Shown here piece by piece: positions 11,183 through 48,376 of a stretch of DNA of 64,000 nucleotides. The notes beneath the pieces were generated by a model, which saw only the letters and a list, made by a program, of their open reading frames with translations, did not search any database and was not told the origin of the DNA. A program made the translations under genes and the position numbers. The stretch is from a bacterium (lineage in GTDB: Bacteria > Patescibacteriota > Minisyncoccia > UBA6257 > MFKM01): assembly GCA_030693325.1 (NCBI GenBank), contig JAUYAV010000019.1, forward strand, positions 1,324-65,323, read 5' to 3'. Position 1 is the stretch's first letter; each line of letters opens with the position of its first letter.

Positions 11183-11188
11183 TTCATT

Positions 11189-13421: not shown

Positions 13422-13464
13422 ATTATCTTAAAGATTAAGAATTAAAAGCTCAGATAATAATTAT

Positions 13465-14178: not shown

Positions 14179-14854
14179 TTAAATTAATTTCTTTAGACCC
14201 TAATTCCAAATCATTTTTCAAATTTTGAGCGGTAATCTTGATATTGATGTTTTGGTTTGAAGGAATAGGCGGAGTTAGCGTCAGTCCTAAGAGATTATCT
14301 CCTTTGTTTGCGAATGTCTGGCCGTTTACCAGCCAAGTAAATAGTAGTTCTCCTAAATTATTTATATTAAAGAAATAAGGAATGGCTTGGAAATCATTTT
14401 TTTTACCCAAGGGAATGGAATTATTTGCCGGAGAAGGGGTTTGAATAACGATTTTGGGATTGGCGATCGGAATATCAGCCGTGCCGTCATATTCTTGCTG
14501 ATTATAATTGACCGCGGCCCGGACAAAATGAGAATTAGTCGCGCCTTTAGTCGCGGTAAAATTTATTTGTTTTAAACCCTGACCTCGCCCCAATAATTTT
14601 CCGTCAAGATACCAGAAAATGTCGGCTTTTGATAAATCTTGGATTTTATTTGTTATTACCAATTCCAAACCGAGTTTAATATTGGTGCCGGACGCGGGCA
14701 AAATTTTTCCTTGATATTCCGCCGGAACAAAACTTTGAGCCTGCCAGGTGATTAAAACTTGGGAAGCGGTTTGAGCGGTTGCGGACAAGACAGAAAGTAA
14801 AAAGCAAAAACTTGAAAGTATAAAAAGAAATAAAATTTTATTTTTTAAATTCAT
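14165..14854 (-). CDS. Secreted beta-rich protein (T4SS-like cluster, unknown function)
   Basis: Signal peptide; 14-nt overlap with the downstream gene, consistent with an operon. Confidence 0.4.
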   Translation of the reverse strand: MNLKNKILFLFILSSFCFLLSVLSATAQTASQVLITWQAQSFVPAEYQGKILPASGTNIKLGLELVITNKIQDLSKADIFWYLDGKLLGRGQGLKQINFTATKGATNSHFVRAAVNYNQQEYDGTADIPIANPKIVIQTPSPANNSIPLGKKNDFQAIPYFFNINNLGELLFTWLVNGQTFANKGDNLLGLTLTPPIPSNQNINIKITAQNLKNDLELGSKEINLNVQQ

Positions 14855-14865
14855 AATTTGAGTTT

Positions 14866-14910
14866 CAATTACTTAATTACCCAATTACTTAATTACTGTT
14901 TAGTAATTTT
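14866..14910. repeat. TAATTAC-type repeat array
   Basis: caattacttaattacccaattacttaattactgtttagtaatt. Confidence 0.6.
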
Positions 14911-15282
14911 TTCGGTAGCGGCCCCTATTTTACCACTAGCAACTGCCGCTACTTGTGTTATTTTGGGGTGGTTAGCTAAATAAATTGTCACATTCAAACT
15001 GACGGTTTTCCCGAAAGGAAGGTCAAGCCCTAAGAAATTAGCCGCCCCATCCAACAAACTGCCGCTTAAATACCACAACCCCTTTATTCCTTTCATTATA
15101 AGCCAAAACTGAATAATTAGCCAAGTGAACCCGGCCACAATCCATTTTACTACTAAAAGAATTTGTCCGAGCACCGGTATGGCTACCAAAAGAGTTGCCG
15201 CTAATTCAAACAAATCCGCCGGGATCACAATCATATTCATCAGAATTATTTCCACTAAACCAATTTTTGGGCTTTCCTCCAT
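14893..15282 (-). CDS. Small polytopic membrane protein (T4SS-like cluster)
   Basis: 129 aa with 3 predicted TM helices. Confidence 0.4.
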   Translation of the reverse strand: MEESPKIGLVEIILMNMIVIPADLFELAATLLVAIPVLGQILLVVKWIVAGFTWLIIQFWLIMKGIKGLWYLSGSLLDGAANFLGLDLPFGKTVSLNVTIYLANHPKITQVAAVASGKIGAATEKITKQ

Positions 15283-15304
15283 TTTTCTTAATTACTAATT
15301 ACTT

Positions 15305-17056: not shown

Positions 17057-17726
17057 TTTCTTTGGTTATTTTCAATTCTCCCCTTTCAACTAATTGGGGG
17101 TTATAAAGATTGTAAACAAGCTCAATGGATTCTTCGGTGCCGAGCGGAATCGCCCGCAAACCGATTTGCTGAAGGCCGGCAACCACTTGGTCAGTTCTCT
17201 GGCTAAGTTGCTGGAGATTTTGCTGGAGATTTTCGGTTTGAGCGGCCTGGTTTTGGGAAGCCGAAGTTTTTTCCTGCCTGTCGGCAGGCAGGGCTTTTTT
17301 AATAAAACTAATTACGCCTTTGGCGGCTTTCGGCAAATAAACCGGGTCATAAGGGACTACCACAAAAAAAGTTTTATCCATAATGGCGTTATTCGCCACA
17401 AATGATTTTATAAATTCCAGGTATTCGGCAATCTGGGTTTTCAATAATTCATTGGATTCCTGCGAATGGCGTTCCTGGAGTTTTGAAAGATAGGATTCAA
17501 TATTCAGGCGGCGGGAATGAATGAAAATCTGGATTGAAAAGTCCAGGGCATTCAAGAGATTTTGATAACCGTAAGTCATCAAGTCCTGTTCTTGTTCTGA
17601 TTTTAAATCAAAATTCACTCCGCTTACCATTAACAACTGGCGCAAAGCGCCGTTTTTAAGAAAAATTACGCCGTCGCGGATTTCCTGAAGTTCCACGAAT
17701 TCCTGGGTTGATAATGTTTTGGGCAT
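17049..17726 (-). CDS. VirB4-family N-terminal domain protein (split from ATPase part, 8-nt ATGCCTAA overlap)
   Basis: IRDGVIFLKNGALRQLLMVSGVNFDLKSEQEQ resembles Gram-positive VirB4 (PrgJ/TcpF/Orf16-type) N-termini. Its stop overlaps the downstream start. Confidence 0.55.
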   Translation of the reverse strand: MPKTLSTQEFVELQEIRDGVIFLKNGALRQLLMVSGVNFDLKSEQEQDLMTYGYQNLLNALDFSIQIFIHSRRLNIESYLSKLQERHSQESNELLKTQIAEYLEFIKSFVANNAIMDKTFFVVVPYDPVYLPKAAKGVISFIKKALPADRQEKTSASQNQAAQTENLQQNLQQLSQRTDQVVAGLQQIGLRAIPLGTEESIELVYNLYNPQLVERGELKITKENA

Positions 17727-17748
17727 TTATTTAATTATAAATTTTTAA

Positions 17749-18252
17749 TTATCTATAGTCCACTCTTTTCGCCGCTTGTTTTTCACCGGTGGATTTTCGG
17801 AAAATTTGATAGCGTTCTTGAACGTTTCGCATGGCGGATTTTTCTCCGGGCAGAGGCAAACGGCTGGTTAAAATTTTTTGGCCGAGGGATTTGATTTTTT
17901 GCTGGAAGCTCAGTTCTTTTTTAATTTCTTCAATTTGCTTCGCTTCTTCTGGCAAAATTATTTCTTCTTTTTCAATTTCTCTTTTCCAAAAATAAACTCG
18001 CGGCCGCCAGTAATAAAATAGAGCGGAAAAAAGGATTTTGGTCAGTGATTGGCCGTTGATTTCTATCAAAGCCAGCGCGCTGGCCGCTCCGAGTAAAATA
18101 ATACTGGCCATAAACCAAAGCCAAAATTGAAAAATAAAAAACATAAGAAAACTCAACCCGCATGCTGCGGCGATATAAAAAAATTGCTGGAGGGTTAAAG
18201 GTCCGACAATTCTTTCTTTAACTTCGTAATATTGAGGAACTTGAAACTGCAT
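17749..18252 (-). CDS. PrgI/VirB3-like two-TM protein
   Basis: Two adjacent TM helices (FFYIAAACGLSFLMFFIFQFWLWFMASIILLGAASALALI) and a charged C-terminus; directly upstream of VirB4 as in Gram-positive T4SS. Confidence 0.5.
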   Translation of the reverse strand: MQFQVPQYYEVKERIVGPLTLQQFFYIAAACGLSFLMFFIFQFWLWFMASIILLGAASALALIEINGQSLTKILFSALFYYWRPRVYFWKREIEKEEIILPEEAKQIEEIKKELSFQQKIKSLGQKILTSRLPLPGEKSAMRNVQERYQIFRKSTGEKQAAKRVDYR

Positions 18253-18253
18253 A

Positions 18254-18287
18254 AATTACAGTAATTACAGTAATTACTGTAATTGTT
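18254..18287. repeat. GTAATTAC palindromic 9-mer array
   Basis: aaattacagtaattacagtaattactgtaattg. Confidence 0.8.
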
Positions 18288-19290
18288 TATTATTCTTTAG
18301 ATTAATAGTGTTTCCTTCCAGTTTCACTTCGTTTGGATTTTTGTTTTCTCTTGCCACGCTAAAAGAATCAAGATTAATGACCGGCGGCGCCGATGGCGTT
18401 ATTGGTTTTGGCAGTTCCGGTTTTATAATAGGCGTCTCAATTTTCTGAGGCGCGATTTCTTTTTGGGGTTGTTCTCTTTGTTTTCCAAAAGGATCGCCTT
18501 GAGTTTTACCGAAGGGAGTGGGGATATCCACTTCTCGGTAATGAATTATTCTCTGTTTCGGGGCTTCGGTTTTGGCAACGACTGGTTCTTTTTTCTCTTC
18601 GATTTTTTGGCCGAAAGTTTCCAATTCCACTTTAATCGGCGATTCCGGCGTTTTAGAGCTTTCTTTTTTAAACCAACCCATAGTCGGCATCGTTGTTTTC
18701 TTTTTTTCGGTAAACGCTTTGGTTTCGGTTTCCTGATGGATGATAAACGGCTGTTCGGCGGAAATTGGCTTCGGAGAAATAACCGGTTCAATTTTCGGCG
18801 GCTGGATTTCGGTTTTGGGCAATTGCGCGGCTTTCGGCAGGTCGGTTATCTCAATGGGTTTGGTTGTAGCTTCTGGTCTGAGGCCTGACGGTTTAAACTC
18901 AATTTCTTTTTCAACTTTCGTTTCCGGTTCGGATTTGATTGTTGGTTTTATTTCCGTCATCGCGCTAGCCGGGCTATAAACTTTTTCTAAATCTGTTCTA
19001 AGCGGGGCAAAAATTTTTCTATTAATTTCATGGCTGATAGGATTAACAATTTGAGGATTCAAATTGAGGGCTTCCTGGATTTCCCGAGCCAGGTCATCGG
19101 GATGAAGAAACCCGAAAATTACATCGCCGACTATCATCGCCATAGTAGAAATTTTTTCCTCAGACAGATGATTAAGGGTGCCGATTTGCCAAACAATATT
19201 GGCATTAATTTCAGAGAACAAAGCCTCTCTCAGGTTATCCGGTAAAGTATCCCATCTTTCTAAAACTTGTTGTCGTGAGATTTGAAGCAT
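18274..19290 (-). CDS. Pro/Lys/Glu-rich disordered protein with structured N-terminal domain (hypothetical)
   Basis: C-terminal half is low-complexity PKxE repeats. Confidence 0.4.
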   Translation of the reverse strand: MLQISRQQVLERWDTLPDNLREALFSEINANIVWQIGTLNHLSEEKISTMAMIVGDVIFGFLHPDDLAREIQEALNLNPQIVNPISHEINRKIFAPLRTDLEKVYSPASAMTEIKPTIKSEPETKVEKEIEFKPSGLRPEATTKPIEITDLPKAAQLPKTEIQPPKIEPVISPKPISAEQPFIIHQETETKAFTEKKKTTMPTMGWFKKESSKTPESPIKVELETFGQKIEEKKEPVVAKTEAPKQRIIHYREVDIPTPFGKTQGDPFGKQREQPQKEIAPQKIETPIIKPELPKPITPSAPPVINLDSFSVARENKNPNEVKLEGNTINLKNNKQLQ

Positions 19291-19309
19291 AAATACAAAT
19301 TATTAGTTA

Positions 19310-21250
19310 TTAAGTTGTAGGTGGCGGAGTCGCTGACCCCGAAGGTGTTATTTCTTCGGCGAATAATCGCTTCCCTAATGTTTTTTTATAAACCGCTCTT
19401 GCTTGCGCGCCTAATTTCCTCATTGCCTCGTCTTTGTTTTTTTCCATAAATGATATTTCTTTTTCGATAAGCGACTTATAATTATCAACAGTTCCTTCTT
19501 TAATGTGCGGCATAACCCTGCCAAACGCTCCGGGGGTCTTTCGGGCGAAAGCGCCAATTAACTGTTTTTGAATATTTTGAAGCTTAGAATCGGTTGTCGT
19601 TTTAAAAATTTCATTCCATTGCCCTTTCGCGTAATCTTTGGGATCAAGCGATTTAAGAAATTCGTCCGTAGCAGCCACTAATTCGTCGTTTGTTTTCGCG
19701 GACACCATTCCCACGCTACGCCCGATAGCTTTTGTTATATTTCCAAAATTAAGCCCTGTGGTTTTGAAATCTTTTTCAACATTAGCCATAGTTGCTCCAT
19801 TGGAGAAGTATTTTGATATTGTTTCCGTGCTTAAATCTTTTTTCTTGGCTAATTCTTCAAGAATAACAGCTCGTTTTATGCCGGTCGCAGCTTGAGCTTC
19901 AATGTTTAACCTCTGAGGTGACAGCCCCGCGACTTGTTTCCTATATTGTTCGGCGGGCACCCGTTCCGCTTGAGCGCCCAAACGATTAATGCCTTGGCCA
20001 ACCCATTTCGCCGGAGCGAATTTTGAATTGGCTAAATTCCTGGTCCAGCCTTTGACTTTCTCGGATCCGGTTACTTTCCCAACACCTTCCCAAGCTTTTC
20101 TGCCGGCGAATCCTTTGATCCCCTTGCCAGCCGCCGACGCCACATTCAAAAAGGTTTTTGCCCCGCCGATTCCCATTTTGTCGGAGATTATCAATCCGAA
20201 CATCAAAAATCCGCCCACTATAACTAAATTAATAACACTGCCGGCAAAATCTTTCATCGGAGTGCCGCCAAATCCCATAAGGTCGTTTAGCTTTCCAACG
20301 CCTTGAGCGTCAAGAGATATTCCGCCGGTGAATGTTTTGTAGTTGTTGGCGAGATAAACCGCCAGATAAAAGAAAAATGAAGCAACGGGAGCGAATATGA
20401 TCCATTTTATGAAATTTTTCCACCACTCTTTCCACATAGATTCGGTTGAAGGTAAAATCATGGAAAGGCAAGCTAAAGGGACCAAAACCAAAAGCACGCT
20501 CAAATTAAGATATCTTAATATAAACATCGCCGCCACCGCTATCAGGCACAATGCTACCAAAAGAGTGAAAACAACCGCGAAAACAAGGCCGGCAATTATT
20601 TTTACCGCTCCGCTGAAAGTGAGGATATTTGCTGCAAAATCGGCGGCGTCTTTCACGCCCAGAAATTGTCCGACATTAAAAGCCGCGGCAAGAGACGTTC
20701 CTAACCCCCCCACTCCCGCGCCGGTAATGTTTGAAATAAAATACTTGGTCAGCATATTGGAAAAATCAATAAAAACGCCGGCGAACATTAAACTGAAGTT
20801 GACCAAAAGCGCCACCGCGATTAATTTCCCCAAAGTGCTTTTGGCTTCGTATTGCTGCATCCGGAGAATGGTAGCGATGGCGATGATAATAATGAATAAA
20901 ACAAAACCTAGATTCGCCAGGTCCCTCGTGATTTTCCAGCCGACGTCAATAATGGGGTTTTGGATAACCGCGAAATTCAAACTGAGAGCAAAATTACTCA
21001 AAAATCCGCCTATCTGAACGGCAATACTGGCTATACTGCCGGCAATAAGACTGATTCCTATAATTGTTAAAGACAATGGCACTGCCGCAATGCCACCGAC
21101 CACATCTAATCCTGTTAAAACAGGGTTAGAAGAAGAATTAGAAGTTGCCGCTGGCGAATCGGCCGCGTAAATTTTCCCCGTATTTCCAATCAATAAAAAC
21201 ATAATCAGGCCTAAAGTGACAATCGCCAATATTTTTTGTTTTTTGTTCAT
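19310..21250 (-). CDS. VirB6/TrbL-like polytopic membrane protein with C-terminal soluble domain
   Basis: Signal peptide, then at least 6 TM helices over ~350 aa, then a ~250-aa hydrophilic C-terminus. Position and topology match VirB6-like T4SS channel proteins. Confidence 0.5.
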   Translation of the reverse strand: MNKKQKILAIVTLGLIMFLLIGNTGKIYAADSPAATSNSSSNPVLTGLDVVGGIAAVPLSLTIIGISLIAGSIASIAVQIGGFLSNFALSLNFAVIQNPIIDVGWKITRDLANLGFVLFIIIIAIATILRMQQYEAKSTLGKLIAVALLVNFSLMFAGVFIDFSNMLTKYFISNITGAGVGGLGTSLAAAFNVGQFLGVKDAADFAANILTFSGAVKIIAGLVFAVVFTLLVALCLIAVAAMFILRYLNLSVLLVLVPLACLSMILPSTESMWKEWWKNFIKWIIFAPVASFFFYLAVYLANNYKTFTGGISLDAQGVGKLNDLMGFGGTPMKDFAGSVINLVIVGGFLMFGLIISDKMGIGGAKTFLNVASAAGKGIKGFAGRKAWEGVGKVTGSEKVKGWTRNLANSKFAPAKWVGQGINRLGAQAERVPAEQYRKQVAGLSPQRLNIEAQAATGIKRAVILEELAKKKDLSTETISKYFSNGATMANVEKDFKTTGLNFGNITKAIGRSVGMVSAKTNDELVAATDEFLKSLDPKDYAKGQWNEIFKTTTDSKLQNIQKQLIGAFARKTPGAFGRVMPHIKEGTVDNYKSLIEKEISFMEKNKDEAMRKLGAQARAVYKKTLGKRLFAEEITPSGSATPPPTT

Positions 21251-21251
21251 T

Positions 21252-22811
21252 TTATGGAGTCGTGACTATACAGAGAGATAAGCGGGATTGAATTGATGAA
21301 AGCTCGGCTTGCTTGTTTTTGGATTCGTCTTCGCTGGCTTTTTTGGTTGTTTCCGGGCCCGGGGCAATTTCTAAAATAAGGGACTGATATTTTGTCAGAA
21401 AATCATTATAGTGCTGGGTCAAAAGAGCCATTTCCCGGTCTCGGAAATCAGCGGAAATATTAACAGCTTCAGTTATGCCGGCTTGATTTTCATTAACAAT
21501 GATTTGATAATTAGCAACTTCATTTGTCAAACGAGTAATTTCGTTTTGAGCGCTGGTTATGTCGCTGTCAGAAACCGGCGGCTGGCAGTTACGCGTTTTT
21601 AACGCATTTAAGTTCGTAACTATTTGCTGTTCGGAAGAAAGAGAGGATTTTTTATTGGCTAAAATTGCATTGAAATAAGCAAGGAATGCCTGATAATCAC
21701 TTTTTATCCGGTCTCTTTCTTGCCTTTTCGCCAAAAGAGCGGGGTCATAATTTCCATAAGGATTATAATTGCCGGAGGCGGAACTCTGGGGCGTGGTGCT
21801 CGGTTTCATTAAACTTAAACCCTCTGTAAAAAGACGATTGATGGTGGCGTTGACCAGGGCCGCTACCCAAGATTGGATATTCTGAGCCCATTGATAATCA
21901 GATGTAACGGCTTGAGCGGCTAACGCGCCGACAGTATCGCCTGGAGTAACAATTTCTTCTTTAATACACTTTATTGTCCCATCGGGTAACTGGGTTGAAG
22001 CTAAACATCTTTTAACCGATAAAAATCCCTTACCGGCTATGGCTTCGTTTTGAGCCGCTTCTTTGGCTTTGGCGCCCTGGATCATTGCTTCATCCATCGT
22101 CATATACAAAGAACCGTAATAATTATTTTCCGGCCACCAGGATTGTTCGTAAGCTATCCAACTGCCATTTCGGAAGTCGTCGTAGAAATTTTGAATATTG
22201 GCGACAATATCGTCAAGGGTGCAGGAAATCCGGTTTTGAAATCTTTGCACCGGCAACAAACTTATTCTGACTTGCAAGCCGAAGGGCTTACAGAGAAAAT
22301 TCAAATTGCTGTTATTGATAACTTCGCCCACCCCCGTGTTAAAAGCGTCGCCTAAAAATGTGTCCCAATTGGTGACGTATCTTGGCTGGCCGCCGCCCTG
22401 AATCCAGTTCACGGTTTCGTCAACAAGCCAGTCCAAGATCATTTTAGCAACGACATCGCGGACGCAATTTTTGGATTTCATAAGAGCGTCGGAGGTTTGT
22501 TGTTTGGAAATTTCGCTCGGCAGATTCACTACCGTTGTGGGCACGGTGAGCATTAAGACGCTTGTTGCCAATTCTGTGACATCCTCCACTTTATGAATAA
22601 TTTTAGATGCCAGTCCGGCGACGAAGTTTTCCAGTTGAATTCCCAAAAAACAGCTTACCCCCGCGCCTATGGCTTGGCCAACGGCTTCTCCTGGCGTGCT
22701 TGCTCCCGCTTGAGCCGCCGCTTTAGGCGTAAAAACATTGCCCAAGCCGCCGAAAATAAGCGAAGAAATGGTTATTGTTAGAATAATTTTTTTAAAAAAT
22801 AAAGATTTCAT
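21252..22811 (-). CDS. Secreted protein, coiled-coil C-terminus (T4SS-like cluster, unknown)
   Basis: Signal peptide MKSLFFKKIILTITISSLIFGGLG...AAAQA; 519 aa. Confidence 0.4.
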   Translation of the reverse strand: MKSLFFKKIILTITISSLIFGGLGNVFTPKAAAQAGASTPGEAVGQAIGAGVSCFLGIQLENFVAGLASKIIHKVEDVTELATSVLMLTVPTTVVNLPSEISKQQTSDALMKSKNCVRDVVAKMILDWLVDETVNWIQGGGQPRYVTNWDTFLGDAFNTGVGEVINNSNLNFLCKPFGLQVRISLLPVQRFQNRISCTLDDIVANIQNFYDDFRNGSWIAYEQSWWPENNYYGSLYMTMDEAMIQGAKAKEAAQNEAIAGKGFLSVKRCLASTQLPDGTIKCIKEEIVTPGDTVGALAAQAVTSDYQWAQNIQSWVAALVNATINRLFTEGLSLMKPSTTPQSSASGNYNPYGNYDPALLAKRQERDRIKSDYQAFLAYFNAILANKKSSLSSEQQIVTNLNALKTRNCQPPVSDSDITSAQNEITRLTNEVANYQIIVNENQAGITEAVNISADFRDREMALLTQHYNDFLTKYQSLILEIAPGPETTKKASEDESKNKQAELSSIQSRLSLCIVTTP

Positions 22812-23630
22812 TTAAGATCCGATTTCTTTTATTTTTTCTCCTAAAATGGTTTGAATTTTTTCACCGCTACTAACCAAGCTATCCATGGCTTCTAAAGCCA
22901 AACCTCCCTTAGGTGGGTCAGTGGGATAATAAGCCATTGCCCGATAGACAACCGCCGAGTTTTTGGCGTAAACAATCATCATTTTATGGATATCAACCCA
23001 ATCCGCCGGGACCGTCAGATTCAAGTATTGGTCAGCCAAGTTTTTATAAATACCGGCTAAACGATTAGCTGAAGAAGGATCGATTTTTTGGTAAGTATCA
23101 ACTATTACTTGTAAATAATTTTCGTTAAAGTCGCCAAAAGTTATTTTATTGATTTCTCCGATGGCTTTTAAGTATCGGGTTTTGGCTTCTTTTGAAATCT
23201 CCGATGAAATTTTTAAGTCAGCATTATTTACGGTTGATACTAATTTGAAATCTGATAAGCTGTCATTAATAACTTTATTTACTAAATTTTCCGATGCCGT
23301 GTTTATATCAGGAGACAGGGTTCTTTTTTCCTGGTTTACGAGATTATTATTTTGGATTTCCTCAAAAAGATTTTCCCCTAAGGCTTTTACGGTGTTATTT
23401 TTTTCGTCAAAATTATAAGGAGTTCTTGGTTCTGGCGTTGGAAGAGAAGTTAATTTAATTTCTGGCGAATTTTCGTTAGGAATAGATTGTTTTTTTGGAG
23501 TGGTAACGAAATAAGCCCCGGTTAAAAATGCGATTACTACCAAAATTATAAGCCCTGATTTTAGGGTTTTCATTAATTTAATTATAACAAATTCTATGAT
23601 ATTATTGTACCATAGAATATGGTTAAACAA
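22812..23630 (-). CDS. Membrane-anchored protein, first gene of T4SS-like operon (unknown)
   Basis: Single N-terminal TM; 272 aa. Confidence 0.4.
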   Translation of the reverse strand: MFNHILWYNNIIEFVIIKLMKTLKSGLIILVVIAFLTGAYFVTTPKKQSIPNENSPEIKLTSLPTPEPRTPYNFDEKNNTVKALGENLFEEIQNNNLVNQEKRTLSPDINTASENLVNKVINDSLSDFKLVSTVNNADLKISSEISKEAKTRYLKAIGEINKITFGDFNENYLQVIVDTYQKIDPSSANRLAGIYKNLADQYLNLTVPADWVDIHKMMIVYAKNSAVVYRAMAYYPTDPPKGGLALEAMDSLVSSGEKIQTILGEKIKEIGS

Positions 23631-24851: not shown

Positions 24852-24888
24852 TGCTATAACAATTTTTAGACGACCGCATTGTTTTTGT
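24852..24888. promoter_or_regulatory. Inverted-repeat operator-like site TATAACAA-N-TTGTTATA
   Basis: tataacaatttttagacgaccgcattgtttttgttata; a near-identical copy sits upstream of the regulator gene at 25491..25530. Confidence 0.5.
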
Positions 24889-25481
24889 TATAGAAGTTCT
24901 TTTTCGTCGTCTATTTCACCTACCGTAATCAATTTGATGTTTTGATACAAATTGCGATTTATAAGTTCTTCAAAAAGATCCTCTGCGAGGGGCTGCTTGC
25001 CTATAAAAACACTTTTTTGTAAAAGTTTATACTCAAGATTGGCAAGCCGGCTCCGGAGCCAGTTGCGGTCTTTGCGTCTTTTTTCGGGAATATCAAACAT
25101 TATTATCCGCCATTTATTGTCCCAGGGGATTTTTTTGTTTTCTTCTTGGTATCTTTTAATAAAATTCAGGCCTTTTAATGTTGGGAGATAACTACCTTTT
25201 TTATTTTCCACTAGCCCTTTCTTCTGAAGGCGCCATAAAATAGTTCGCGCGCTATTTTCTTTCAGTTCTTTCATTTCTCTGTAATAATCCCAAAAAGATT
25301 TTCCTTTTAATCCTTTTTCCATTGCTCCGGCCATTCCCATTCTTGGATGTTTAAGCTCCAATAAGTCAATTAAAGTTGAAGCGCCGCGTTCAGCCAGGCC
25401 TAAAAGCAGCGCCATACCGGCTGAACTTATTTTTGTCGGCAAACCTAATCTTTTTTCTGTTGGCATTTTTTGTTTTAGCAC
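24888..25481 (-). CDS. PaaX-like regulator (winged HTH + Cas2/VapD-like C-terminal domain)
   Basis: C-terminus WRIIMFDIPEKRRKDRNWLRSRLANLEYKLLQKSVFIG matches the Cas2-like fold signature in PaaX-family proteins. Flanked on both sides by the same palindrome. Confidence 0.5.
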   Translation of the reverse strand: MLKQKMPTEKRLGLPTKISSAGMALLLGLAERGASTLIDLLELKHPRMGMAGAMEKGLKGKSFWDYYREMKELKENSARTILWRLQKKGLVENKKGSYLPTLKGLNFIKRYQEENKKIPWDNKWRIIMFDIPEKRRKDRNWLRSRLANLEYKLLQKSVFIGKQPLAEDLFEELINRNLYQNIKLITVGEIDDEKELL

Positions 25482-38702: not shown

Positions 38703-38775
38703 GGGCGCTTAGCTCAGCTGGTAGAGCGTCGCATTTACACTGCGAAGGCCTGAGGTTCGAACCCTCAAGCGCCCA
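38703..38775 (+). tRNA. tRNA-Val (TAC)
   Basis: gggcgct...agcgccca; D-loop agctggta; anticodon stem tcgca/tgcga with loop ttTACac; T-loop ttcgaac. Confidence 0.85.
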
Positions 38776-38979
38776 CTAATTCCGAAATAAAAATCAACTC
38801 CTTTTAATAGGTGAAATATTTAGGTTAAGATCTGGCGTCTTTTTCTGTTTGGATTTAGTTTACTGGGAAATTACGATTTTTCCTTAAATAAACCCTATTT
38901 TAAAAACAACTTTAAAATCTGATAGAAAGCTTAGGTTTTATCCACTTACTGAGGAATGTAGATAAAACCTACGTTTTTA

Positions 38980-39199: not shown

Positions 39200-39682
39200 T
39201 TAGGGAAACAAATGAATATTTTTATCAAAAATTCCCCATTTATAAAGCCGGTATAATGATTTATACCTATCAGAAACATCCGGGTCGCTTCCGATTTTCT
39301 CTAACCAATCAATAAATTGTATGGCCTTATATCCCTTTAATTTTTTATAGAAAAAGGGGATTATAATATCTTTCAACTGCTCAAAATCTCTTACTACCAA
39401 CGCCGCCATTCTTCCTCTTTTATAGCCATCGCCAGTCCATGCTTTATGATTATAAATTGGATTTTTTAAATCTAAAGAATCTCTCACCATTTTTAACAAA
39501 TTTTCGTCTCGCTCATGCATTCCTATATAAAAAGTAGGCATTTTACACTTTCTACCGTTCTTTTGGCGCCATCCAGTATGGAAACTAAAACAGCCTTCGC
39601 CAGTAACTAAGCCCCTGATATAATCATTGGTTAAAGTTTTTTTGTTCAGGATGGTTTGTTTGTTGACGAACACTTCGCTCAT
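39200..39682 (-). CDS. Free-standing LAGLIDADG-type homing-endonuclease-like protein (single-motif, 160 aa)
   Basis: IRGLVTGEGCFSF matches the LAGLIDADG_3 motif (lAGfiDGEGsF); second conserved block IGMHERDENLLKMVRDSL; size fits homodimeric single-motif enzymes. Confidence 0.55.
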   Translation of the reverse strand: MSEVFVNKQTILNKKTLTNDYIRGLVTGEGCFSFHTGWRQKNGRKCKMPTFYIGMHERDENLLKMVRDSLDLKNPIYNHKAWTGDGYKRGRMAALVVRDFEQLKDIIIPFFYKKLKGYKAIQFIDWLEKIGSDPDVSDRYKSLYRLYKWGIFDKNIHLFP

Positions 39683-41990: not shown

Positions 41991-42059
41991 AAAAATTAAA
42001 AATTTAGTCATTGATTAAAAATTTTAAATTTAAAATTGTTTTATTGTAGAAAAAGTAAT

Positions 42060-45000
42060 ATGAATAAATCTAATACAGGATATACTCTCATCGAACTATT
42101 AATCTACACCGTTATCTTTGCCATCTCCGTCGGCGTCTTCTCCGGCGTCCTCATTACTTTCACCAGAGTTCAGACCCAGACTTCGGCTGATTCCGAGCTC
42201 ACCCAGCAGTTGTCGTTCGTCCAGTCAACTATCCAGCGGCTCGTCCGGGACAGCGCCAATATCCAAAATCCGGCCGGAGTCGCTTCTTCCAGTTTGGTCT
42301 TAAGAATGGCTTCTTCCTCTTTAGACCCCACCGTTATCTCCTCCGACGCCAACGGCATCTATCTCCAACAGGGCACAGGAGAAGTCATTCCTATCACCAA
42401 CAGCCAGGTCAAGGTTGCCCAGTTTGAGGCCATCAAATACGAAAACCCTAATGCCCACGCCATTGTCCAAGTCAATATTGCCTTAACCTACAACAGTCAG
42501 AATCCCTACCAGCAGATAACGAGAGCCCTTAAGATCGCCATCGGCAGAGTGTCCGCCGCCACCTTTGACGATAGTTTGATTCCCAATACCAACAATTCTT
42601 TTTCCCTGGGTGATGCCACTTACAAATGGAAAGACATCAACATTTCCAATCTCCTCAACGTGGGCCAGTTGATCACCGACCCCGTGGCCGGAGCCCAGAA
42701 CGGGTCTATCTATTACAATACTTCCTCCAGCGCTTTCCGGGGTTATGCCAACAGCGTTTGGTCTGTTCTTGGAGGCGTGGGCTGGGCCGCTTCCTCCACC
42801 AATATCTACAACACCAATGCCGGGAACGTGGGGATCGGCACCGCCAGCCCGGGTGATACCTTGGATGTAAACGGCTCTATTGTGACAACCGGAATCCAAG
42901 ACACCGGGAAAACTACCAAGATGTGGCTGTCAGGCGCTATAGCAGCCAAAACTCTTGATTATATGGAATACTCCTCCGACGCCAATGCACAGGTGGCGTA
43001 TGTGAGTAATGCTACTATAGCTAATCCAATATCTCATTGGAAGATGAATGATAATGCTGCTACTACAGTTGTGGTAGATTCAATGAGTGCTAACGCAGGA
43101 ACTGCTGATGCTAATACAGATACATTAGATACAACAGGAAAAATAAATGGTGCACTTTTGTGCAGTGTTTCACCAGTAAGAGCAGTAGCGATTGGTTCTA
43201 CGGGTTTTCCTGCTGTCAATACAGCGAGGTCTGTTAGTCATTGGGTATATCTTACATCAAGAAATGCTATTGGTGGAACATTCAGTTTTGGATATGGAAC
43301 AGGAGATACTAATAAGGGGTGGGCTATAGACGCAGGCGGAACATCTTCCACTACTCCATTACGAGTTGCTGGCTATTCAAATGATTGGTCTACTAATTAT
43401 ACTTTACCTTTAAATGAATGGCACCTTATTACTGTAACTTATGATGGAACGAATCTATTAAAATTATATGTGGATGGCACATTACAAGATTCTACTACAA
43501 GTTATACATTTGCTACTGTTCTTTCTACGGCGTATATTGGAGGAAATTGGGATGGCAGTGCTGCATATAGATTTAATGGTTCAATAGATGATGTTCGTAT
43601 CTATAATTTTGTTTTAACTGCAACAGAAGTCTTAGGACTCTATAATAATAATGCTGGAACTGAATTACAAAATCCTCAAGGAAATCTCCAATCCTACTCC
43701 GAAGCCACAATCAAAACTCAAGGAAGTTATGCGTTGAAGGCGGTGGCAGCGATAACGACTTCACTCAACAAAACCCTCACCCGCACCGTATCGCCTACGA
43801 TAGATTTATCTAACCAAACTCAGATCAAGTTTGATATTCGTGCCTCAAGACCTGGAAGCAATATCAAGATAGGCATCCATGATAGCGGCGGAACGACCAC
43901 TGAAACAACGCCTAATATTGCTTCAGCAGACACATATCAAACTATTACTTGGGATATATCGACGGTAACCAATGCCAATAAAGATGCGATAGACCAGATT
44001 ATAGTTACTATCATTAATGCGGACGCTGCCAATACTTTCTATATAGACAATTTGTATTCGCCTTCTGTCGGGTCGCTTGCCGATATCATATTCACGACAG
44101 CCAGTTCGGAAAGAATGAGGATTGATTCCTCCGGCAACGTCGGCATCGGGACGACGGTGCCGGGGGCGAAATTGCAAATAAGTAATGCTGACCAAACTTA
44201 TGCTCTTACGCTTGAAGATGCGAGAACTGGAAATGGACATTGGGTTAGATTTACAGAAGGCGGAACTGAAAAATGGGTTTTGGGACAAGTCGGCAGTGGA
44301 GTTGCTGGACGAGCAGATAATTTTGAAATTGTAAGTGGAAACGGCACTACTCGGTTGGCGATTGCTTCAACAACTGGCAACGTCGGCATCGGGACGACGG
44401 GGCCGGGGAGCCTTTTACACGTCAAGCATCCAAGTGGGAATCTGACGACCAGATTTGAGGGTTTGTCTAATTCGTATTCTTCAAAAATGTATTTAAGTTC
44501 CGTTTCCTCTGGCGATGGCGGCATGATGTATGATGCGGCTAGTAATCTCAGCAATATATTTTCCTACGGTGACCTCAGATTTAATGTAGGTACAGCAAAT
44601 ATATCGGGAGCAATTGGAAACGAGAGAATGGTTATACAACAAGGCGGCAACGTCGGCATCGGGACGACGGGACCGGGGTCACGTTTTACTGTTTATCAGA
44701 ATGTTTCCGGCGCTACAACGGCAGGAATGGAACTGAGATATGATGGTACTATCCACAGAAAGATGTATATGAATTACTCCGGTGATATGTATTTCTATAA
44801 TGGCACTAATGAGGGTTATCTTTCCTCAGCGGGCGTTTGGACAAACGCTTCTGACATCTCCTTAAAATCCAACATTCGGCCAATTGAGTATGGTTTGGCC
44901 GATCTATTAAAACTTCAACCGCGTTCTTACGAAATGAACGCTGACGGATTGCCTCAAATTGGGTTCGTGGCTCAAGAGGTTGAAGGGATAATTCCGGAAC

Positions 45001-45326
45001 TTGTTTCTATAGGTGGGCAAGGGTTAAAGGGTCTTTCTTATGGCAACCTGACTGCAATCAATACTAAAGGTATCCAAGAGCTTTACCAAAAGGTGCGTGG
45101 AGTTGATACGGCAGAAAATGGGGATGTAGCAATAACCGGCAACGTCGGCATCGGGACGGCGGATCCGGGAAGTTATAAATTAAAAGTCGTTGGAACTGTA
45201 AGTGTAAATAGCGGCACTAATATTATTTACAGATGCACAACCGCGGGAACGCTTCCAATCGGAGCATTAACAATAAATTCAGGAAATTGTGGCGCGAGTG
45301 CTGATACGGGGTTAAGTGTGAATTAG
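42060..45326 (+). CDS. Giant type IV pilin-like protein: class III signal + LamG-like lectin domain + GNVGIGTTxPG tail-fibre-like repeats + C-terminal S74 intramolecular chaperone domain
   Basis: Start at ATG 42060: MNKSNTG/YTLIELLIYTVIFAISVG prepilin signature with Glu at +5. LamG_3-like block (WHLITVTYDG...LYVDG...FNGSIDDVRIYN). Five GNVGIGT(A/T)xPG repeats. C-terminal SDISLKSNIRPIEYGLADLLKLQPRSYEMNADGLPQIGFVAQEVEGIIPELV matches the endosialidase-chaperone (Peptidase S74) consensus SDxRxK...GfIAQEVeevlPelV. Confidence 0.75.
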   Translation: MNKSNTGYTLIELLIYTVIFAISVGVFSGVLITFTRVQTQTSADSELTQQLSFVQSTIQRLVRDSANIQNPAGVASSSLVLRMASSSLDPTVISSDANGIYLQQGTGEVIPITNSQVKVAQFEAIKYENPNAHAIVQVNIALTYNSQNPYQQITRALKIAIGRVSAATFDDSLIPNTNNSFSLGDATYKWKDINISNLLNVGQLITDPVAGAQNGSIYYNTSSSAFRGYANSVWSVLGGVGWAASSTNIYNTNAGNVGIGTASPGDTLDVNGSIVTTGIQDTGKTTKMWLSGAIAAKTLDYMEYSSDANAQVAYVSNATIANPISHWKMNDNAATTVVVDSMSANAGTADANTDTLDTTGKINGALLCSVSPVRAVAIGSTGFPAVNTARSVSHWVYLTSRNAIGGTFSFGYGTGDTNKGWAIDAGGTSSTTPLRVAGYSNDWSTNYTLPLNEWHLITVTYDGTNLLKLYVDGTLQDSTTSYTFATVLSTAYIGGNWDGSAAYRFNGSIDDVRIYNFVLTATEVLGLYNNNAGTELQNPQGNLQSYSEATIKTQGSYALKAVAAITTSLNKTLTRTVSPTIDLSNQTQIKFDIRASRPGSNIKIGIHDSGGTTTETTPNIASADTYQTITWDISTVTNANKDAIDQIIVTIINADAANTFYIDNLYSPSVGSLADIIFTTASSERMRIDSSGNVGIGTTVPGAKLQISNADQTYALTLEDARTGNGHWVRFTEGGTEKWVLGQVGSGVAGRADNFEIVSGNGTTRLAIASTTGNVGIGTTGPGSLLHVKHPSGNLTTRFEGLSNSYSSKMYLSSVSSGDGGMMYDAASNLSNIFSYGDLRFNVGTANISGAIGNERMVIQQGGNVGIGTTGPGSRFTVYQNVSGATTAGMELRYDGTIHRKMYMNYSGDMYFYNGTNEGYLSSAGVWTNASDISLKSNIRPIEYGLADLLKLQPRSYEMNADGLPQIGFVAQEVEGIIPELVSIGGQGLKGLSYGNLTAINTKGIQELYQKVRGVDTAENGDVAITGNVGIGTADPGSYKLKVVGTVSVNSGTNIIYRCTTAGTLPIGALTINSGNCGASADTGLSVN

Positions 45327-45351
45327 GAGTCACGGGAAAAAACAATTCTTC

Positions 45352-45376
45352 TATCAAGGTTGAGCCTCAATAATTT
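45352..45376. repeat. Cassette-boundary imperfect palindrome TATCAAGGTTGA(A/G)CCTCAATAAT (copy 1 of 5)
   Basis: Further copies at 45727..45746 (inverted), 46227..46250, 46448..46473 and 47260..47282 (inverted). Confidence 0.7.
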
Positions 45377-45650
45377 AGAATTTATAGGTAGTCCTAAAAC
45401 TCATCGCAGTCTCCATCCGCAAACCTACCCCTCGAAGCCTTTCAACGGAGACAGCCTGCCGCCTATAATTTAATCTTGCTTTTTATCCCCCTCTCCCGTT
45501 CCCTTCAATTTCCTTATCTCCTCCCCGATCTCATCAAAAAATCCCTCATAGAATTTCTTGTCTTCTACGGTTATTTCCCCTTCTTTCAATCTCTCCGCGG
45601 CTTTCTTTTAATCTCTTGGTGTTTTCACCCCCGCCACCGGGTAATAAGTT

Positions 45651-45682
45651 CCTCACTGATATACTTAAGTATATCAGTGAGG
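45651..45682. repeat. Perfect 32-bp palindrome CCTCACTGATATACTTAAGTATATCAGTGAGG
   Basis: Read directly; a 22-bp core copy is at 46358..46379. Confidence 0.9.
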
Positions 45683-45787
45683 AAGAATATCTTTTTATTT
45701 TATAATTATCTAAGAAGTACATTATCGAGGTCGAACCTTGATAATTCAAATTGACAAAAAGTTTTAACACGCTAAAATAATAATTAT

Positions 45788-46009
45788 ATGTCTAGACAAT
45801 TTACGGCAATATACAAAAAAAGCGGAAAATGGTATCTTGGCTGGATTGAAGAAATCCCGGGAGTGAATACACAAGGGAAAACCCTCAAAGAAACCAAAGA
45901 AAACCTCAAAGAGGCGGTTTTGTTGATTCTTGAAACCAACCGCGCTCTCGCGAAAAAAGAAGCTCGCGCCGGCGGAATAACTCGTGAATCAATTTCAGTT
46001 TCTTTATAG
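45788..46009 (+). CDS. hicB: HicB-family antitoxin
   Basis: TAIYKKSGKWYLGWIEEIPGVNTQGKTLKETKENLKEAVLLILE matches the HicB/UPF0150 fold signature. Promoter TTGACA-16-TAAAAT lies upstream. Confidence 0.7.
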   Translation: MSRQFTAIYKKSGKWYLGWIEEIPGVNTQGKTLKETKENLKEAVLLILETNRALAKKEARAGGITRESISVSL

Positions 46010-46019
46010 ATTATTTATA

Positions 46020-46217
46020 ATGAAGCGGAAAACCTTAATCAGTTATATTGTTAAAAACGGATGCATATTCATCAGAGAAGGCGCGAAACACAGCGTCTTT
46101 TTTAATCCCTTGATCAAACGTTCTTCTACCGTGCCGCGGCATAATGAAATTGATGATTTTTTAGCCAGAAAAATTTGCCGCGATTTAGGAGTTAGCGAGT
46201 TCAAAAAACAAAAATAG
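46020..46217 (+). CDS. hicA: HicA-family mRNA interferase toxin
   Basis: Start moved to MKRKTLISYIVKNGC... REGAKHSVFFNP...VPRHNEID fits the HicA (YcfA-like) pattern around the catalytic His. Directly follows hicB. Confidence 0.65.
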   Translation: MKRKTLISYIVKNGCIFIREGAKHSVFFNPLIKRSSTVPRHNEIDDFLARKICRDLGVSEFKKQK

Positions 46218-46473
46218 ATTGTAATATATCAAGGTTGAACCTCAATAGTTTCTAGAAGCGATTCAAAATTGTCCCGATTTCATCGAGGTCCGATGACTCG
46301 CGACTCCTGTCGGAGACTCTCGACAAAGTCGGAGCAAATCCATCGTAATCTACGAAGCTGATATACTTAAGTATATCAGTACGAATTAATGCGAGATTTC
46401 AAAATCAACGGCTCAACGGGAATTCCCGTTGAGCCGTTGAAATATTTTATCAAGGTTGAACCTCAATAATTTT

Positions 46474-46560
46474 TTGAGATTTTTATTATACTTTAGCCGG
46501 TGTTTGGGCTATTACTAAGGTCTGTTTTTTTATTTCTTCCAAAAGTTTTTTGTCTTCAAT
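46474..46560. repeat. Partial duplicate of the recA 3' end and downstream sequence (direct repeat with 47296..47395)
   Basis: 38 + 33 identical nt blocks (gagatttttattatactttagccggtgtttgggc ... tttttttatttcttccaaaagttttttgtcttc). Its minus-strand reading frame ends ...[23 protein letters not shown], like RecA. Confidence 0.85.
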
Positions 46561-46596
46561 TGACTTTCGATTTTTGGGTATGATAAAATAAGACAT

Positions 46597-46827
46597 ATGG
46601 TCACTATCACTATTCCTAAAAAAGAATATCAAAACATCATTCAGAGACAATCGCTTCTTGAAAAGGAAATGGGGTTTTTGAGAAAGACCCTTTTCGAGCT
46701 GGATGAGATAAATATTAAGCCGTCTGTCTTGCGCCGATGGGAGCGTATTAGCCGTGAGCTTGATCGGGGACACGGCCGTTCTTTTTCTTCGTTTAGTGAG
46801 ATGAAAGGATGGTTAAGAAATCTCTGA
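46597..46827 (+). CDS. Putative antitoxin of RelE/ParE-type module
   Basis: 76 aa; immediately upstream of the toxin with 1-nt spacing. Confidence 0.5.
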   Translation: MVTITIPKKEYQNIIQRQSLLEKEMGFLRKTLFELDEINIKPSVLRRWERISRELDRGHGRSFSSFSEMKGWLRNL

Positions 46828-46828
46828 T

Positions 46829-47122
46829 ATGGCCGAGAATGTCTATAGAGATATTGTAAGAATTATATATTCCCGTGAGGTTGAAGACGCTCTCAAGAAA
46901 CTCAAAAAGAGAAATAAAGATATATTTGATAGAGTCGAAAAACAGATAATCAAAATTCTTCGCGAGCCGAATATCGGCAAGCCGCTCCGCTACACTTTAA
47001 GAAACCGCCGACGGGTGCATGTCGGCTCTTTTGTTTTAATCTACGAATTTCATCAGGGCGAGTTGCGCTTTATTGATTTTGATCACCATGATTTAATTTA
47101 TAAGAAGTCCAAGCAGCAATAA
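46829..47122 (+). CDS. RelE/ParE-family toxin
   Basis: ...EPNIGKPLRYTLRNRRRVHVGSFVLIYEF... fits the RelE/StbE fold pattern; 97 aa. Confidence 0.6.
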   Translation: MAENVYRDIVRIIYSREVEDALKKLKKRNKDIFDRVEKQIIKILREPNIGKPLRYTLRNRRRVHVGSFVLIYEFHQGELRFIDFDHHDLIYKKSKQQ

Positions 47123-47317
47123 TTAAATGAGAAAGCCCGAATTTGCAAGCAAGAAATCAATATCGTACACAGCATATTGGGAACATCCGCGAAAATTAGG
47201 CAAACGTGCGGCAAACAAAAGCGAACGGCAGGGCGCGAAACGGAAATTATGGGTTTCTCTTGAGGTTAAACCTTGATAATAGATAACATTAATAGATGTT
47301 TCTTTTTGAGATTTTTA

Positions 47318-48319
47318 TTATACTTTAGCCGGTGTTTGGGCCGCGGTGAGGGTCTGTTTTTTTATTTCTTCCAAAAGTTTTTTGTCTTCTTTTAATTTTA
47401 ATTTGGCGGCTTCAAGACCGACACCTAATTTTTCTTTATTGAAACTGTAAGTGTTGCCGGATTTGATGACACTGCCGTATTTAATAGCGGTATTCAAAAC
47501 ATCGGCTTCCGGGACGATTCCTTCGCCGAAAATAATTTCAAACTCGGCGATTTTAAAAGGCGCTGCCACTTTATTTTTGACTACCTTAGCATGCACCAGC
47601 TGGCCGATTATTTCTTCGCCTTTTTTCAGTTTGGCTTTGGCCCGGATATCAATTCTAATTGAAGAGAAAAATTTCAAAGCGCGGCCGCCGGGAGTCGTTT
47701 CGGGATTGCCGAACATAATTCCGATTTTCATCCGGATTTGGTTGATAAAAATAATGACGGTTTTTGATTTGGAAGTAATGGCAGTTAATTTTCGCAGGGC
47801 CTGGCCCATCATCCGGGCTTGCAAGCCCATAAATTGATCGCCCATTTCGCCTTCAATTTCCGCGCGGGGAGTAAGAGCCGCCACCGAGTCCACTACGATT
47901 AAGTCAATTATTCCTGACCTTACCAGACTTTCAACGATATTCAGGGCCTCTTCGCCGCTGTCCGGCTGAGAAAGTAAGAGGTCGTCGGTTTTTACCCCAA
48001 GTTTTCTTGCGTAATCAATATCAAAAGCGTGTTCGGCGTCAATATAAGCGGCTTTGCCGCCTTTTTTTTGAAGCTCGGCAATGGCATGAAGAGTTAAAGT
48101 GCTTTTGCCCGACATTTCCGGGCCGTAAATTTCCACCATCCGGCCGCAGGGCAGACCGCCTACTCCCAAAGCCAAATCCAGAGAAAAAGAGCCGGAAGGG
48201 ATGACCTCGGTTTTGCCGATTTTTTTATCTCCGAGCCGCATTATAGATCCTTCGCCGAATTTAGTTTTTAAACTTTCAATTAAATCGGAAAAATCTTTGT
48301 CTTTATTGGTTTTGTCCAT
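47318..48319 (-). CDS. recA: Recombinase RecA
   Basis: Walker [11 protein letters not shown]; L1/L2 loop regions; 333 aa. Confidence 0.95.
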
Positions 48320-48331: not shown

Positions 48332-48376
48332 GAATTACTGTAATTACTGTAATTGCTGTAATTGCTGTAATTACTT
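48332..48376. repeat. GTAATTAC/GTAATTGC palindromic 9-mer array
   Basis: gaattactgtaattactgtaattgctgtaattgctgtaattact. Confidence 0.8.

Follow-up and report, generated by a model that had tools for sequence, protein, structure and literature searches.

The stretch of DNA analysed here (64,000 nt of the patescibacterial contig JAUYAV010000019.1; hereafter the window) carries, next to recA, an islet of toxin-antitoxin (TA) operons punctuated by short imperfect palindromes. Comparison with other genomes and metagenomes indicates that these palindromes are decayed copies of a repeat that resembles the repetitive extragenic palindromes (REPs) and is common to the Patescibacteria, or Candidate Phyla Radiation (CPR). 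On balance, the evidence favours an interpretation in which repeats of this type, as found with REP-associated tyrosine transposases (RAYTs), form the joints of small modules in a hypervariable slot downstream of recA. The original prediction, made from the letters of the window, had described the islet as TA cassettes delimited by integron-like sites; that reading is wrong on the enzyme and the site, and right on the presence of bounded, exchangeable modules.

The repeat family and its probable transposase partner

The 23-nt motif of the original prediction (TATCAAGGTTGARCCTCAATAAT) was searched in the whole 64 kb with up to three mismatches and compared with 100 shuffles. Four matches were found, at 45352-45374 (+ strand, 0 mismatches), 45721-45743 (- strand, 3), 46227-46249 (+ strand, 1) and 46448-46470 (+ strand, 0), with 0 expected by shuffling and none further in the window. 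A fifth and more diverged copy, at 47258-47282 (TCTTGAGGTTAAACCTTGATA), was recovered by repeat finding and with the family consensus at two mismatches. All five predicted copies (45352, 45727, 46227, 46448 and 47260) are present and are absent from the rest of the 64 kb, and a search of the window for other palindromes centred on GTT-N-AAC returned the known copies only. They had also been described as lying in either orientation, but an orientation flip is not evident, since that claim rested on one variable and normally paired position; the central base on the + strand is G at 45352, 45723, 46227 and 46448 and A at 47258.

The family consensus, TATCRAGGTTNAACCTYGATA, is 21 nt long and consists of two 10-nt arms around one central base. 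One genome per species was scanned with a loose pattern, which left the central three positions free (the consensus fixes two of them as AA) and forced the rare unpaired A...C variant. The resulting 71 matches are near our chance estimate of about 70, and the signal therefore resides in the 44 that fit the stricter consensus with no more than one mismatch, most of which are labelled as metagenome-assembled genomes (MAGs) of Patescibacteria. In metagenomes, at least 120 loci contain the consensus. A search of 2.9 million IMG/VR viral contigs gave zero matches, and a phage or plasmid origin of the motif was dropped on this ground. Among 147 unbiased copies, arm positions 5 and 17 co-vary (G-C in 109, A-T in 28, A-C in 6 and G-T in 4; Fisher p = 4e-20), that is, 137 copies are paired at these positions and 10 are unpaired. 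Of the 221 copies placed over 190 loci, 133 lie in intergenic DNA or small open reading frames (ORFs), RAYT genes contain or adjoin another 51, and the remaining 37 fall within other long ORFs.

RAYT homologues were found by the motif at four genome loci and at least 21 of the 120 metagenomic loci listed. They form a large family (7,343 clusters at E <= 1e-10), and the sources that name any of its members say just "transposase". In L045 (surveyed loci are given L numbers throughout), five motif copies lie around and inside a 230-aa ORF for a Y1 HUH transposase (2673-3408). The RAYT-like protein matched Pfam PF01797 (Y1_Tnp) above the cut-off (E = 8.8e-9) and the NCBIfam model REP_Tyr_transpos with 49 bits, under the model cut-off of 80 (E = 4.8e-13). 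Alignment of 16 such proteins revealed that MPNHxH and YIHxN are invariant and that one proline is nearly so. The same gene layout recurs in about 18 loci: a first motif precedes the start codon (-21 to -53), an in-frame copy that is read as YRGSTSI lies at +453 to +477, and the stop codon coincides with a further motif; an additional motif is often present at +173 to +179. The spacings between motifs in RAYT genes are about 216, 290 and 218 nt, and the in-frame copies (L045, L080, L084, L109, L013, L124 and others) encode IEV(E/Q)P(Q/R)Y, YRGSTSI and a C-terminal IEVEPR. These own-repeat copies may serve self-regulation or self-targeting of the RAYT genes. In L045, the motif contains a -35-like TTGAAC, 17 nt ahead of a TATAAT before the RAYT gene.

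Diverged RAYTs were accompanied by palindromes of the same build with different arms, again upstream of, inside and at the end of the gene (CTATGGGAGTTGAACTCCCATAG in L199 and TTACGAAGTTNAACTTCGTAA in L181). L199, whose RecA is 87% identical to that of the window, has a RAYT gene flanked by the variant palindrome; this gene (5001-5702) is part of a type IV pilus operon, where it is flanked by the prepilin peptidase gene and a pilin gene. A motif-bracketed Y1 HUH gene with a co-varying repeat is the signature of the REP-RAYT partnership (PMC5581495). Because the motif brackets and sits inside RAYT genes, and because the variants of repeat and transposase match, it is REP-like and not attC-like, and we consider it very likely that it represents a REP-type repeat with a RAYT partner.

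Copies were also observed in frame within ORFs of housekeeping type, which were named by eye and not by family search: L002 at 2829 (RsmI-like), L036 at 1059 (Dus-like, a doublet) and L069 at 2868 (RsmH-like). Further copies within such ORFs occur in L027 (5185/5208, glycosyltransferase-like), L015, L056 and L060. The housekeeping copies use all three stop-free frames, encoding YQGSTSI, SRLNLD and IKVEPR. The RsmH-like protein of L069 has no obvious extra length relative to the presumed size of its Bacillus subtilis orthologue, and plain insertion may not be the whole story for the in-frame motif in this gene. Folded as RNA, the copies form weak hairpins (-2 to -11 kcal/mol), most are without a T run and the terminator scan called none, and the motif was for these reasons rejected as a terminator. 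The worry raised with the original prediction, that the motif might be a common terminator-like hairpin by housekeeping genes, was borne out in that the copies elsewhere are dispersed and lie beside or inside such genes, but not in that they are terminator-like. Nor do the copies elsewhere always flank small accessory cassettes: besides bounding TA intervals, they bracket RAYT genes and lie beside or inside housekeeping genes.

The slot downstream of recA

The islet fills the gap between the convergent pilin-like gene, with its stop at 45326, and recA, on the - strand. Its features, with the motif copies numbered m1 to m5, are as follows.

42036-45326, + strand: large gene for a pilin-like surface protein, left flank (Pfam: N-terminal methylation motif, LamG domain and S74 chaperone domain)
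45352-45374: m1 (TATCAAGGTTGAGCCTCAATA), 26 nt past the pilin-like stop; decayed, with two stem mismatches
45375-45648, - strand: non-coding relic module with a frame-broken ORF
45649-45684: palB1, a 36-nt perfect palindrome with the core GATATACTTAAGTATATC
45721-45743: m2 (core 45723-45743, TATCGAGGTCGAACCTTGATA), 44 nt upstream of hicB
45751-45778, + strand: hicBA promoter (TTGACA, 16-nt spacer, TAAAAT; 11 of 12 consensus positions)
45788-46009, + strand: hicB-like antitoxin gene (UPF0150; Pfam PF21748, E = 8e-7, above cut-off; 96% identity to the L065 protein)
46020-46217, + strand: hicA toxin gene (Pfam PF07927, E = 1e-8, above cut-off; 87% identity to the L065 protein)
46227-46249: m3, 9 nt past the hicA stop; endpoint of the motif-to-motif homology with L065
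46250-46447, strandless: non-coding relic module containing palB2 and palC
46358 to about 46380: palB2, within the preceding relic module
46405-46440: palC, a 36-nt perfect G+C-rich hairpin with T-rich tails, beside m4
46448-46470: m4, abutting the 3' untranslated region (UTR) of a displaced recA end
46560-46589, + strand: promoter of the antitoxin-parE operon (TTGACT, 18-nt spacer, TAAAAT, TG extension), of the conserved family TTGACTTTTGATTTTTGG
46597-46827, + strand: gene for a putative antitoxin of 76 aa with the N-terminus MVTITIPK; its stop lies 1 nt ahead of the toxin start codon
46829-47122, + strand: gene for a toxin of the ParE/RelE superfamily, 97 aa (Pfam PF05016, E = 1.6e-8, above cut-off; NCBIfam YafQ and RelE/StbE subfamilies below their cut-offs)
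47127-47276, + strand: small basic ORF of 49 aa, of doubtful coding status, terminating within m5
47258-47282: m5, the recA-proximal "anchor" copy, with a central T on the recA-sense strand
47318-48319, - strand: recA, right flank (Pfam RecA, E = 6e-125)

From these matches, hicBA and antitoxin-parE/relE are predicted to be intact type II TA operons, both of which have a sigma-70-type promoter of their own. The two top-scoring sigma-70-like sites of the region are those at 45751-45778 and 46560-46589, one before each operon, and the gap between the hicB-like gene and hicA is 10 nt. Both pairs had been recognised correctly in the original prediction; Pfam supports the HicB-like, HicA and ParE/RelE assignments, and the 76-aa partner has no Pfam or NCBIfam match. 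This 76-aa gene belongs to a recurrent M-x-T-I-T-I-P-K family, which precedes ParE toxins in L133 and is also present in L105. The 49-aa ORF has no family match and no homologue among the fetched loci; likewise, the frame-broken ORF (45375-45650) has no homologue among the proteins of these loci. The window at 45372-45413 is homologous to L065 at 2257-2298.

Close relatives were found through RecA homologues, and the slot of each was read outward from recA. The RecA identity of L065 presumes that protein P0002 is encoded on its 2,641-bp contig.

L209, RecA 90%: slot without motif
L074-L076, RecA 89%: slot without motif
L077-L078, RecA 87%: slot without motif
L208, RecA 91%: motif vestige, then the next gene
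L065, RecA about 93%: motif, hicBA, motif
L207, RecA 91%: motif, parE-like operon, motif, second relE/parE-like operon, motif
L072, RecA 92%: motif, different parE operon, motif, palB, displaced recA 3' end
Window (query): motif, parE operon, displaced recA end, motif, relic, motif, hicBA, motif, palB relic, motif

The homology over hicBA between L065 (1709-2225) and the window (46248-45722) amounts to 88% over 528 nt and ends at the outer edges of two motifs. Past the distal motif, L072 matches the window in the spacer, in palB and in the beginning of an older displaced recA end; before that motif, the two carry unrelated operons. The recA-proximal motif has a central T on the recA-sense strand in the window, L065, L207 and the vestige of L208, and the far flank of the slot varies among relatives. 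These alignments indicate that TA modules are gained, lost and exchanged among close relatives with breakpoints at motif copies, and a modular, motif-bounded turnover of TA operons is in our judgement likely. The proposal that the TA modules were acquired as mobile cassettes was thus supported as far as bounded and exchangeable units are concerned, with relatives holding 0, 1 or 2 different modules in the slot, but not with regard to an integron enzyme or site.

Further comparison within the islet revealed that the end of recA (82 nt of coding sequence including the stop and 15 nt of 3' UTR; 47303-47399, - strand) is repeated at 46471-46567 (- strand), with a gapless blastn alignment of 87 nt at 90.8% identity (partner 47303-47389). 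The antitoxin-parE operon sits between these two direct repeats of about 97 nt, which were overlooked in the original prediction. Motif copies had been thought to bound both TA pairs; this is true of hicBA, but on the left side of the parE pair there is the displaced recA 3' end. The displaced copy would encode a C-terminal RecA segment, and it directly abuts m4, which is followed by palC, also overlooked before. A recA stop, 15-29 nt and a motif is the layout behind the intact recA in the relatives L065, L072 and L207, and because of this match the displaced recA end, m4 and the hairpin look like the old end of the recA transcription unit; palC is probably the former recA terminator, now stranded. 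Identity to the relatives does not distinguish the native from the duplicate recA 3' copy. In addition, a segment of the window at about 45603-45640 shows homology with the beginning of the recA 3' end that is displaced in L072, and on this homology it is a putative vestige of an older displaced recA end.

The second palindrome, CTGATATACTTAAGTATATCAG, occurs exactly twice in the window, at 45656-45677 and 46358-46379, with 0 expected. Two copies had been reported, the first as a 32-bp version, and both were found, the first measuring 36 nt (45649-45684). The outer arms of palB differ between the window and L072, with complementarity kept in both. It forms a separate repeat family, present among the loci checked in the window and in L072/L073 only; L072 has six copies in 1.1 kb (7630-8651), around a Trp-repressor-like ORF. 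Six single matches to palB were found in viral contigs, near the estimated chance number. A palC-like hairpin with the same stem (AACGGCTCAACGG...) was observed in two unrelated metagenomic contigs, L094 (about 602-639) and L108 (about 219-253), with different loops.

Regarding the surroundings of the islet, genes resembling the pilin-like gene adjoin the motif in other loci, and similar proteins adjoin the motif or RAYT genes in L067, L144, L096, L136, L152, L181 and L003. The pilin-like gene of the window contains a 43-nt segment four times (44125-45172), encoding GNVGIGT-type repeats. On the other side, a 9-nt tandem repeat of about five units (AATTACTGT / AATTGCTGT; 48333-48375) occupies the short gap that separates the start of recA from the HTH_25 (RodZ-like) gene upstream of it. 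An FtsK DNA translocase gene is located 2 kb from the islet. In the window, Rfam detected nothing but tRNAs, and no tRNA adjoins the islet. Elsewhere, a free-standing LAGLIDADG endonuclease ORF (39200-39682, - strand) lies between tRNA-Val (38703-38776) and a UPF0102 gene, with no rRNA nearby according to Rfam, and a Cas2-like/PaaX_M-domain protein is encoded at 24888-25481. The stretch 8242-23630 includes dnaN and dnaA (8242-10952), after which come yidC and jag-like genes and a cluster (13465-18252) that gave T4SS-pilin (type IV secretion system) and PrgI-like matches; the window therefore lies near a replication origin.

Toxin-antitoxin arrays elsewhere and possible routes of exchange

Motif-bounded intervals were surveyed in loci picked for the motif alone; those considered span 150-1700 nt from one copy to another and contain no RAYT gene, and ORFs in them were called mechanically. 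TA-bearing intervals were frequent, and included hicBA in L067 (a Jorgensenbacteria MAG), three modules in series in L105, relE with a ribbon-helix-helix gene in L116, a Panacea-type module in L174, an AbiE-type module in L144 that shares its upstream motif with a divergent RAYT gene, and a further case in L185. L133 contains at least six modules, and its junctions carry several differently armed palindromes centred on GTT-N-AAC. Such junction palindromes, centred on GTT-N-AAC or GTTAAC, were located at 170-3490 of L133 and 3800-3990 of L207 (for example CTTACGAAGTTNAACTTCGTAAG, CTATGGGAGTTCGACTCCCATAG and AAGTCCAGTTAACTGGACTT). RAYT genes stand beside TA arrays in L144, L185 and L181.

Of 132 small ORFs located no more than 150 nt from a motif, at least 15 were identified as TA components (HicA 5, DUF6922 3, UPF0150 2, ParE 2, HEPN 1, DUF433 1 and PIN 1). 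None of these TA families was among the 25 families listed for 130 ORFs at 1500 nt or more from a motif in the same loci, a control that is approximate, with 2-5 TA components seen by eye in the distant set outside the top 25. In 11 of 12 TA modules, the coding strand carries the G at the centre of the upstream motif, and in many modules one motif lies 6-30 nt past the toxin stop and one 40-130 nt ahead of the antitoxin start. The promoter TTGACTTTTGATTTTTGG, spacer included, stands ahead of antitoxin genes that are unrelated to one another, in the window, L067, L072, L105, L133, L161 and L185. Its sites are at 46560-46577 in the window, 1553 in L067, 7558 in L072, 992, 1581 and 2361 in L105, 961, 1652 and 2897 in L133, and 11708 and 12487 in L185. 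Such conservation suggests that these genes have a 5' module in common or answer to the same regulator.

In the mechanism proposed here, the unit would consist of a promoter, the TA genes and a palindrome, and would enter at the resident palindrome beside recA. By one route, a RAYT supplied in trans could cut and rejoin single-stranded hairpins; by the other, the motif copies and the conserved recA flank would act as recombination substrates after DNA uptake. The RAYT-driven and passive routes are not mutually exclusive. The latest event may have been the arrival of the parE module by recA-anchored recombination, suggested by the 97-nt direct repeat that flanks it, in which the donor recA 3' end would have been brought in and the resident end displaced. 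Once in, the TA operons would persist by addiction, as is expected from general TA biology. That passive homologous or illegitimate recombination was the main route comes close to an even chance without reaching it. That the RAYT is the enzyme moving the modules is proposed tentatively, and this route stays alive because of the orientation bias, because RAYT genes have the same layout as TA modules, and because some of them stand next to arrays. A far-reaching version, which we rate as rather unlikely, would see a CPR cassette-capture system that is integron-like but run by RAYTs, with the 21-nt GTT-N-AAC palindromes as sites, TA or defence operons with a standard promoter as cassettes, arrays growing at an anchor beside conserved genes such as recA, and the in-frame palindromes of RAYT and housekeeping genes as means of self-regulation or as footprints.

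Several observations weigh against REP/RAYT repeats as the active joints of these modules, besides the approximate nature of the control above. The best-matching window copies, m1, m3 and m4, carry the same two stem-breaking changes, which therefore points to local spread by duplication or recombination and not to fresh transposition. No RAYT gene was detected by tblastn in the 64-kb window. The 37 of 221 copies within long ORFs depart from classical REPs, and a search for a GTAG-like guide tetranucleotide in the flanks of the 221 copies gave a weak A/T preference only. HUH transposition of the "peel and paste" kind predicts no 97-nt target duplication, and breakpoints at motif edges would also be expected if the motifs were the sole sequence common to unrelated modules. 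Finally, no identical cassette was found in a clearly different chromosomal slot among the loci compared.

Some of these points are accommodated by a minimal-mobile-element model, in which the slot would be swapped among related cells by DNA uptake and homologous recombination in the conserved flanks, with occasional homology-facilitated illegitimate joins. The palindromes would then be passive REPs, situated between modules by circumstance and offering short stretches of common sequence, and no transposase would be involved. The 97-nt recA repeat fits a recA-anchored crossover with an illegitimate second join, and older displaced recA ends are seen in L072 and, as a vestige, in the window. 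Genes for pilin-like proteins and for an ATPase of the type IV pilus type are also present in the window, its motif copies are decayed with common derived changes, and the far flank of the slot varies between relatives. The model leaves unexplained, however, why palindromes of the same architecture stand at almost all module boundaries in unrelated genomes, why the orientation of the upstream copy is fixed (11 of 12), and why RAYT genes have the motif-gene-motif layout and lie beside TA arrays (L144, L185 and L181); we regard it as possible but doubtful. An improbable alternative is that the motif is a regulatory or structural element (a terminator, insulator, mRNA-stabilising hairpin or operator) without any role in rearrangement, found near TA genes since both gather in dispensable DNA. 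Its consistent placement after toxin stops and before antitoxin starts, the -35-like TTGAAC ahead of the L045 RAYT gene and the arm co-variation, which is also compatible with a symmetric dimer-binding site, would suit such an element. The weak hairpins, mostly without a T run and never called as terminators, the in-frame copies in coding regions including the RAYT gene, the arms varying together with the RAYT variant, and the homology between relatives that starts and stops at copies all argue the other way.

The integron-like array of the original prediction, with the palindromes as short attC-like sites for a tyrosine recombinase encoded elsewhere, is very unlikely, even though a fixed site by a conserved gene is followed by a variable number of cassettes that each end in a site copy, the cassettes are co-oriented with a consistent site orientation relative to them, and chromosomal integrons typically contain TA cassettes. 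The 7 nt at the centre of the motif, GTTGAAC, agree with what we take to be the integron core consensus, GTTRRRY, a 7-nt degenerate match that could be due to chance. Against this, Pfam analysis of about 50 non-nested ORFs of at least 120 aa in the 64 kb revealed neither the integrase or tyrosine recombinase for which a search nearby had been suggested nor a serine or other recombinase. The site is a 21-nt single inverted pair, too short and without a second box pair, unpaired bases or a variable loop, its flanks are unconserved, the modules carry their own promoters, and the accompanying gene encodes a Y1 HUH transposase of the RAYT type. Exceedingly unlikely are modules of Xer/dif type, in which dif-like palindromes would be used by the host XerC/D; the case for them consists of a likeness to what we understand of Acinetobacter pdif modules (small TA modules between short imperfect palindromes) and of the FtsK gene 2 kb away. 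Two 10-nt arms with one central base differ from two 11-nt arms around a spacer of 6-8 bp, Pfam found no Xer-type recombinase in the same ORFs of the window, and the strong association is with an HUH transposase.

Returning to REP/RAYT-type repeats as joints of modules, the relevance of such a system lies in its hosts. The genomes of the CPR, or Patescibacteria, are tiny and are regarded as containing few mobile elements and defence systems, and here a REP-like repeat and a large RAYT-like family are found across the radiation. A repeat that punctuates TA arrays suggests a simple means for small genomes to acquire, order and exchange accessory modules, and if it is true that the transposase moves them, the result would be a counterpart of the integron that relies on another class of recombinase. 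RAYT genes with their own repeat in frame are unusual and may be self-regulatory. With its repeatedly displaced 3' end, recA, a universal marker gene, borders a recombination hot spot, so that module gain and loss can be tested directly in metagenomic populations. Full-text searches confined to one collection of open-access papers turned up no account of REP/RAYT elements, or of arrays of this kind, for CPR phyla, and the wider pattern of REP/RAYT repeats and TA arrays in the CPR appears to be undescribed.

Comparison with known systems

The REP/REPIN and RAYT systems of Proteobacteria (PMC5581495) share with the CPR repeat a dispersed short palindrome, a bracketed Y1 HUH gene and arms that co-vary with the transposase variant, and adjacent inverted doublets like theirs occur in L027, L036 and L041. 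The CPR unit differs in being only 21 nt long and without a conserved flanking tetranucleotide. A single sequence is kept across phylum-level diversity, whereas REPs are species-specific, and the copy number is apparently low, with five copies in 64 kb that are all in one 2-kb cluster. Moreover, CPR copies lie in frame in RAYT and housekeeping genes and bound TA arrays. The IS200/IS605 elements and their palindrome-associated derivatives also have a Y1 HUH enzyme and hairpin ends on both sides, with possible single-strand "peel and paste" movement and mobilisation of cargo in trans; in the CPR, in contrast, both ends are the same symmetric palindrome, no target tetranucleotide was identified, and the protein of about 230 aa has a conserved C-terminal extension.

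Chromosomal integrons (attC, IntI; for example the TA cassettes of the Vibrio superintegron) resemble the arrays described here in their small, co-oriented cassettes, many of them TA modules with their own promoters, in the imperfect palindromes of fixed orientation between cassettes, and in the anchoring of the array by a fixed site. They differ in that the CPR arrays have no IntI and no attC boxes, a unit of 21 nt instead of about 55-140 nt, and an HUH enzyme. The Acinetobacter pdif modules are likewise small, often TA modules, and lie between short imperfect palindromes, while the CPR site is not dif, its location is chromosomal and no link to Xer was found. Tolerance of palindromes in frame within genes is shared with the Rickettsia palindromic elements, which measure 100-150 nt as against 21 nt (seven codons) here. 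The minimal mobile elements and dRS3 mosaics of Neisseria offer a parallel for the slot itself, in which strains differ in the whole-gene cassettes that they carry between conserved genes, short repeats punctuate these cassettes, and exchange by uptake and flanking homology is plausible; the CPR slot is set apart by a repeatedly duplicated recA flank, a far flank that is not conserved, and a dedicated transposase family.

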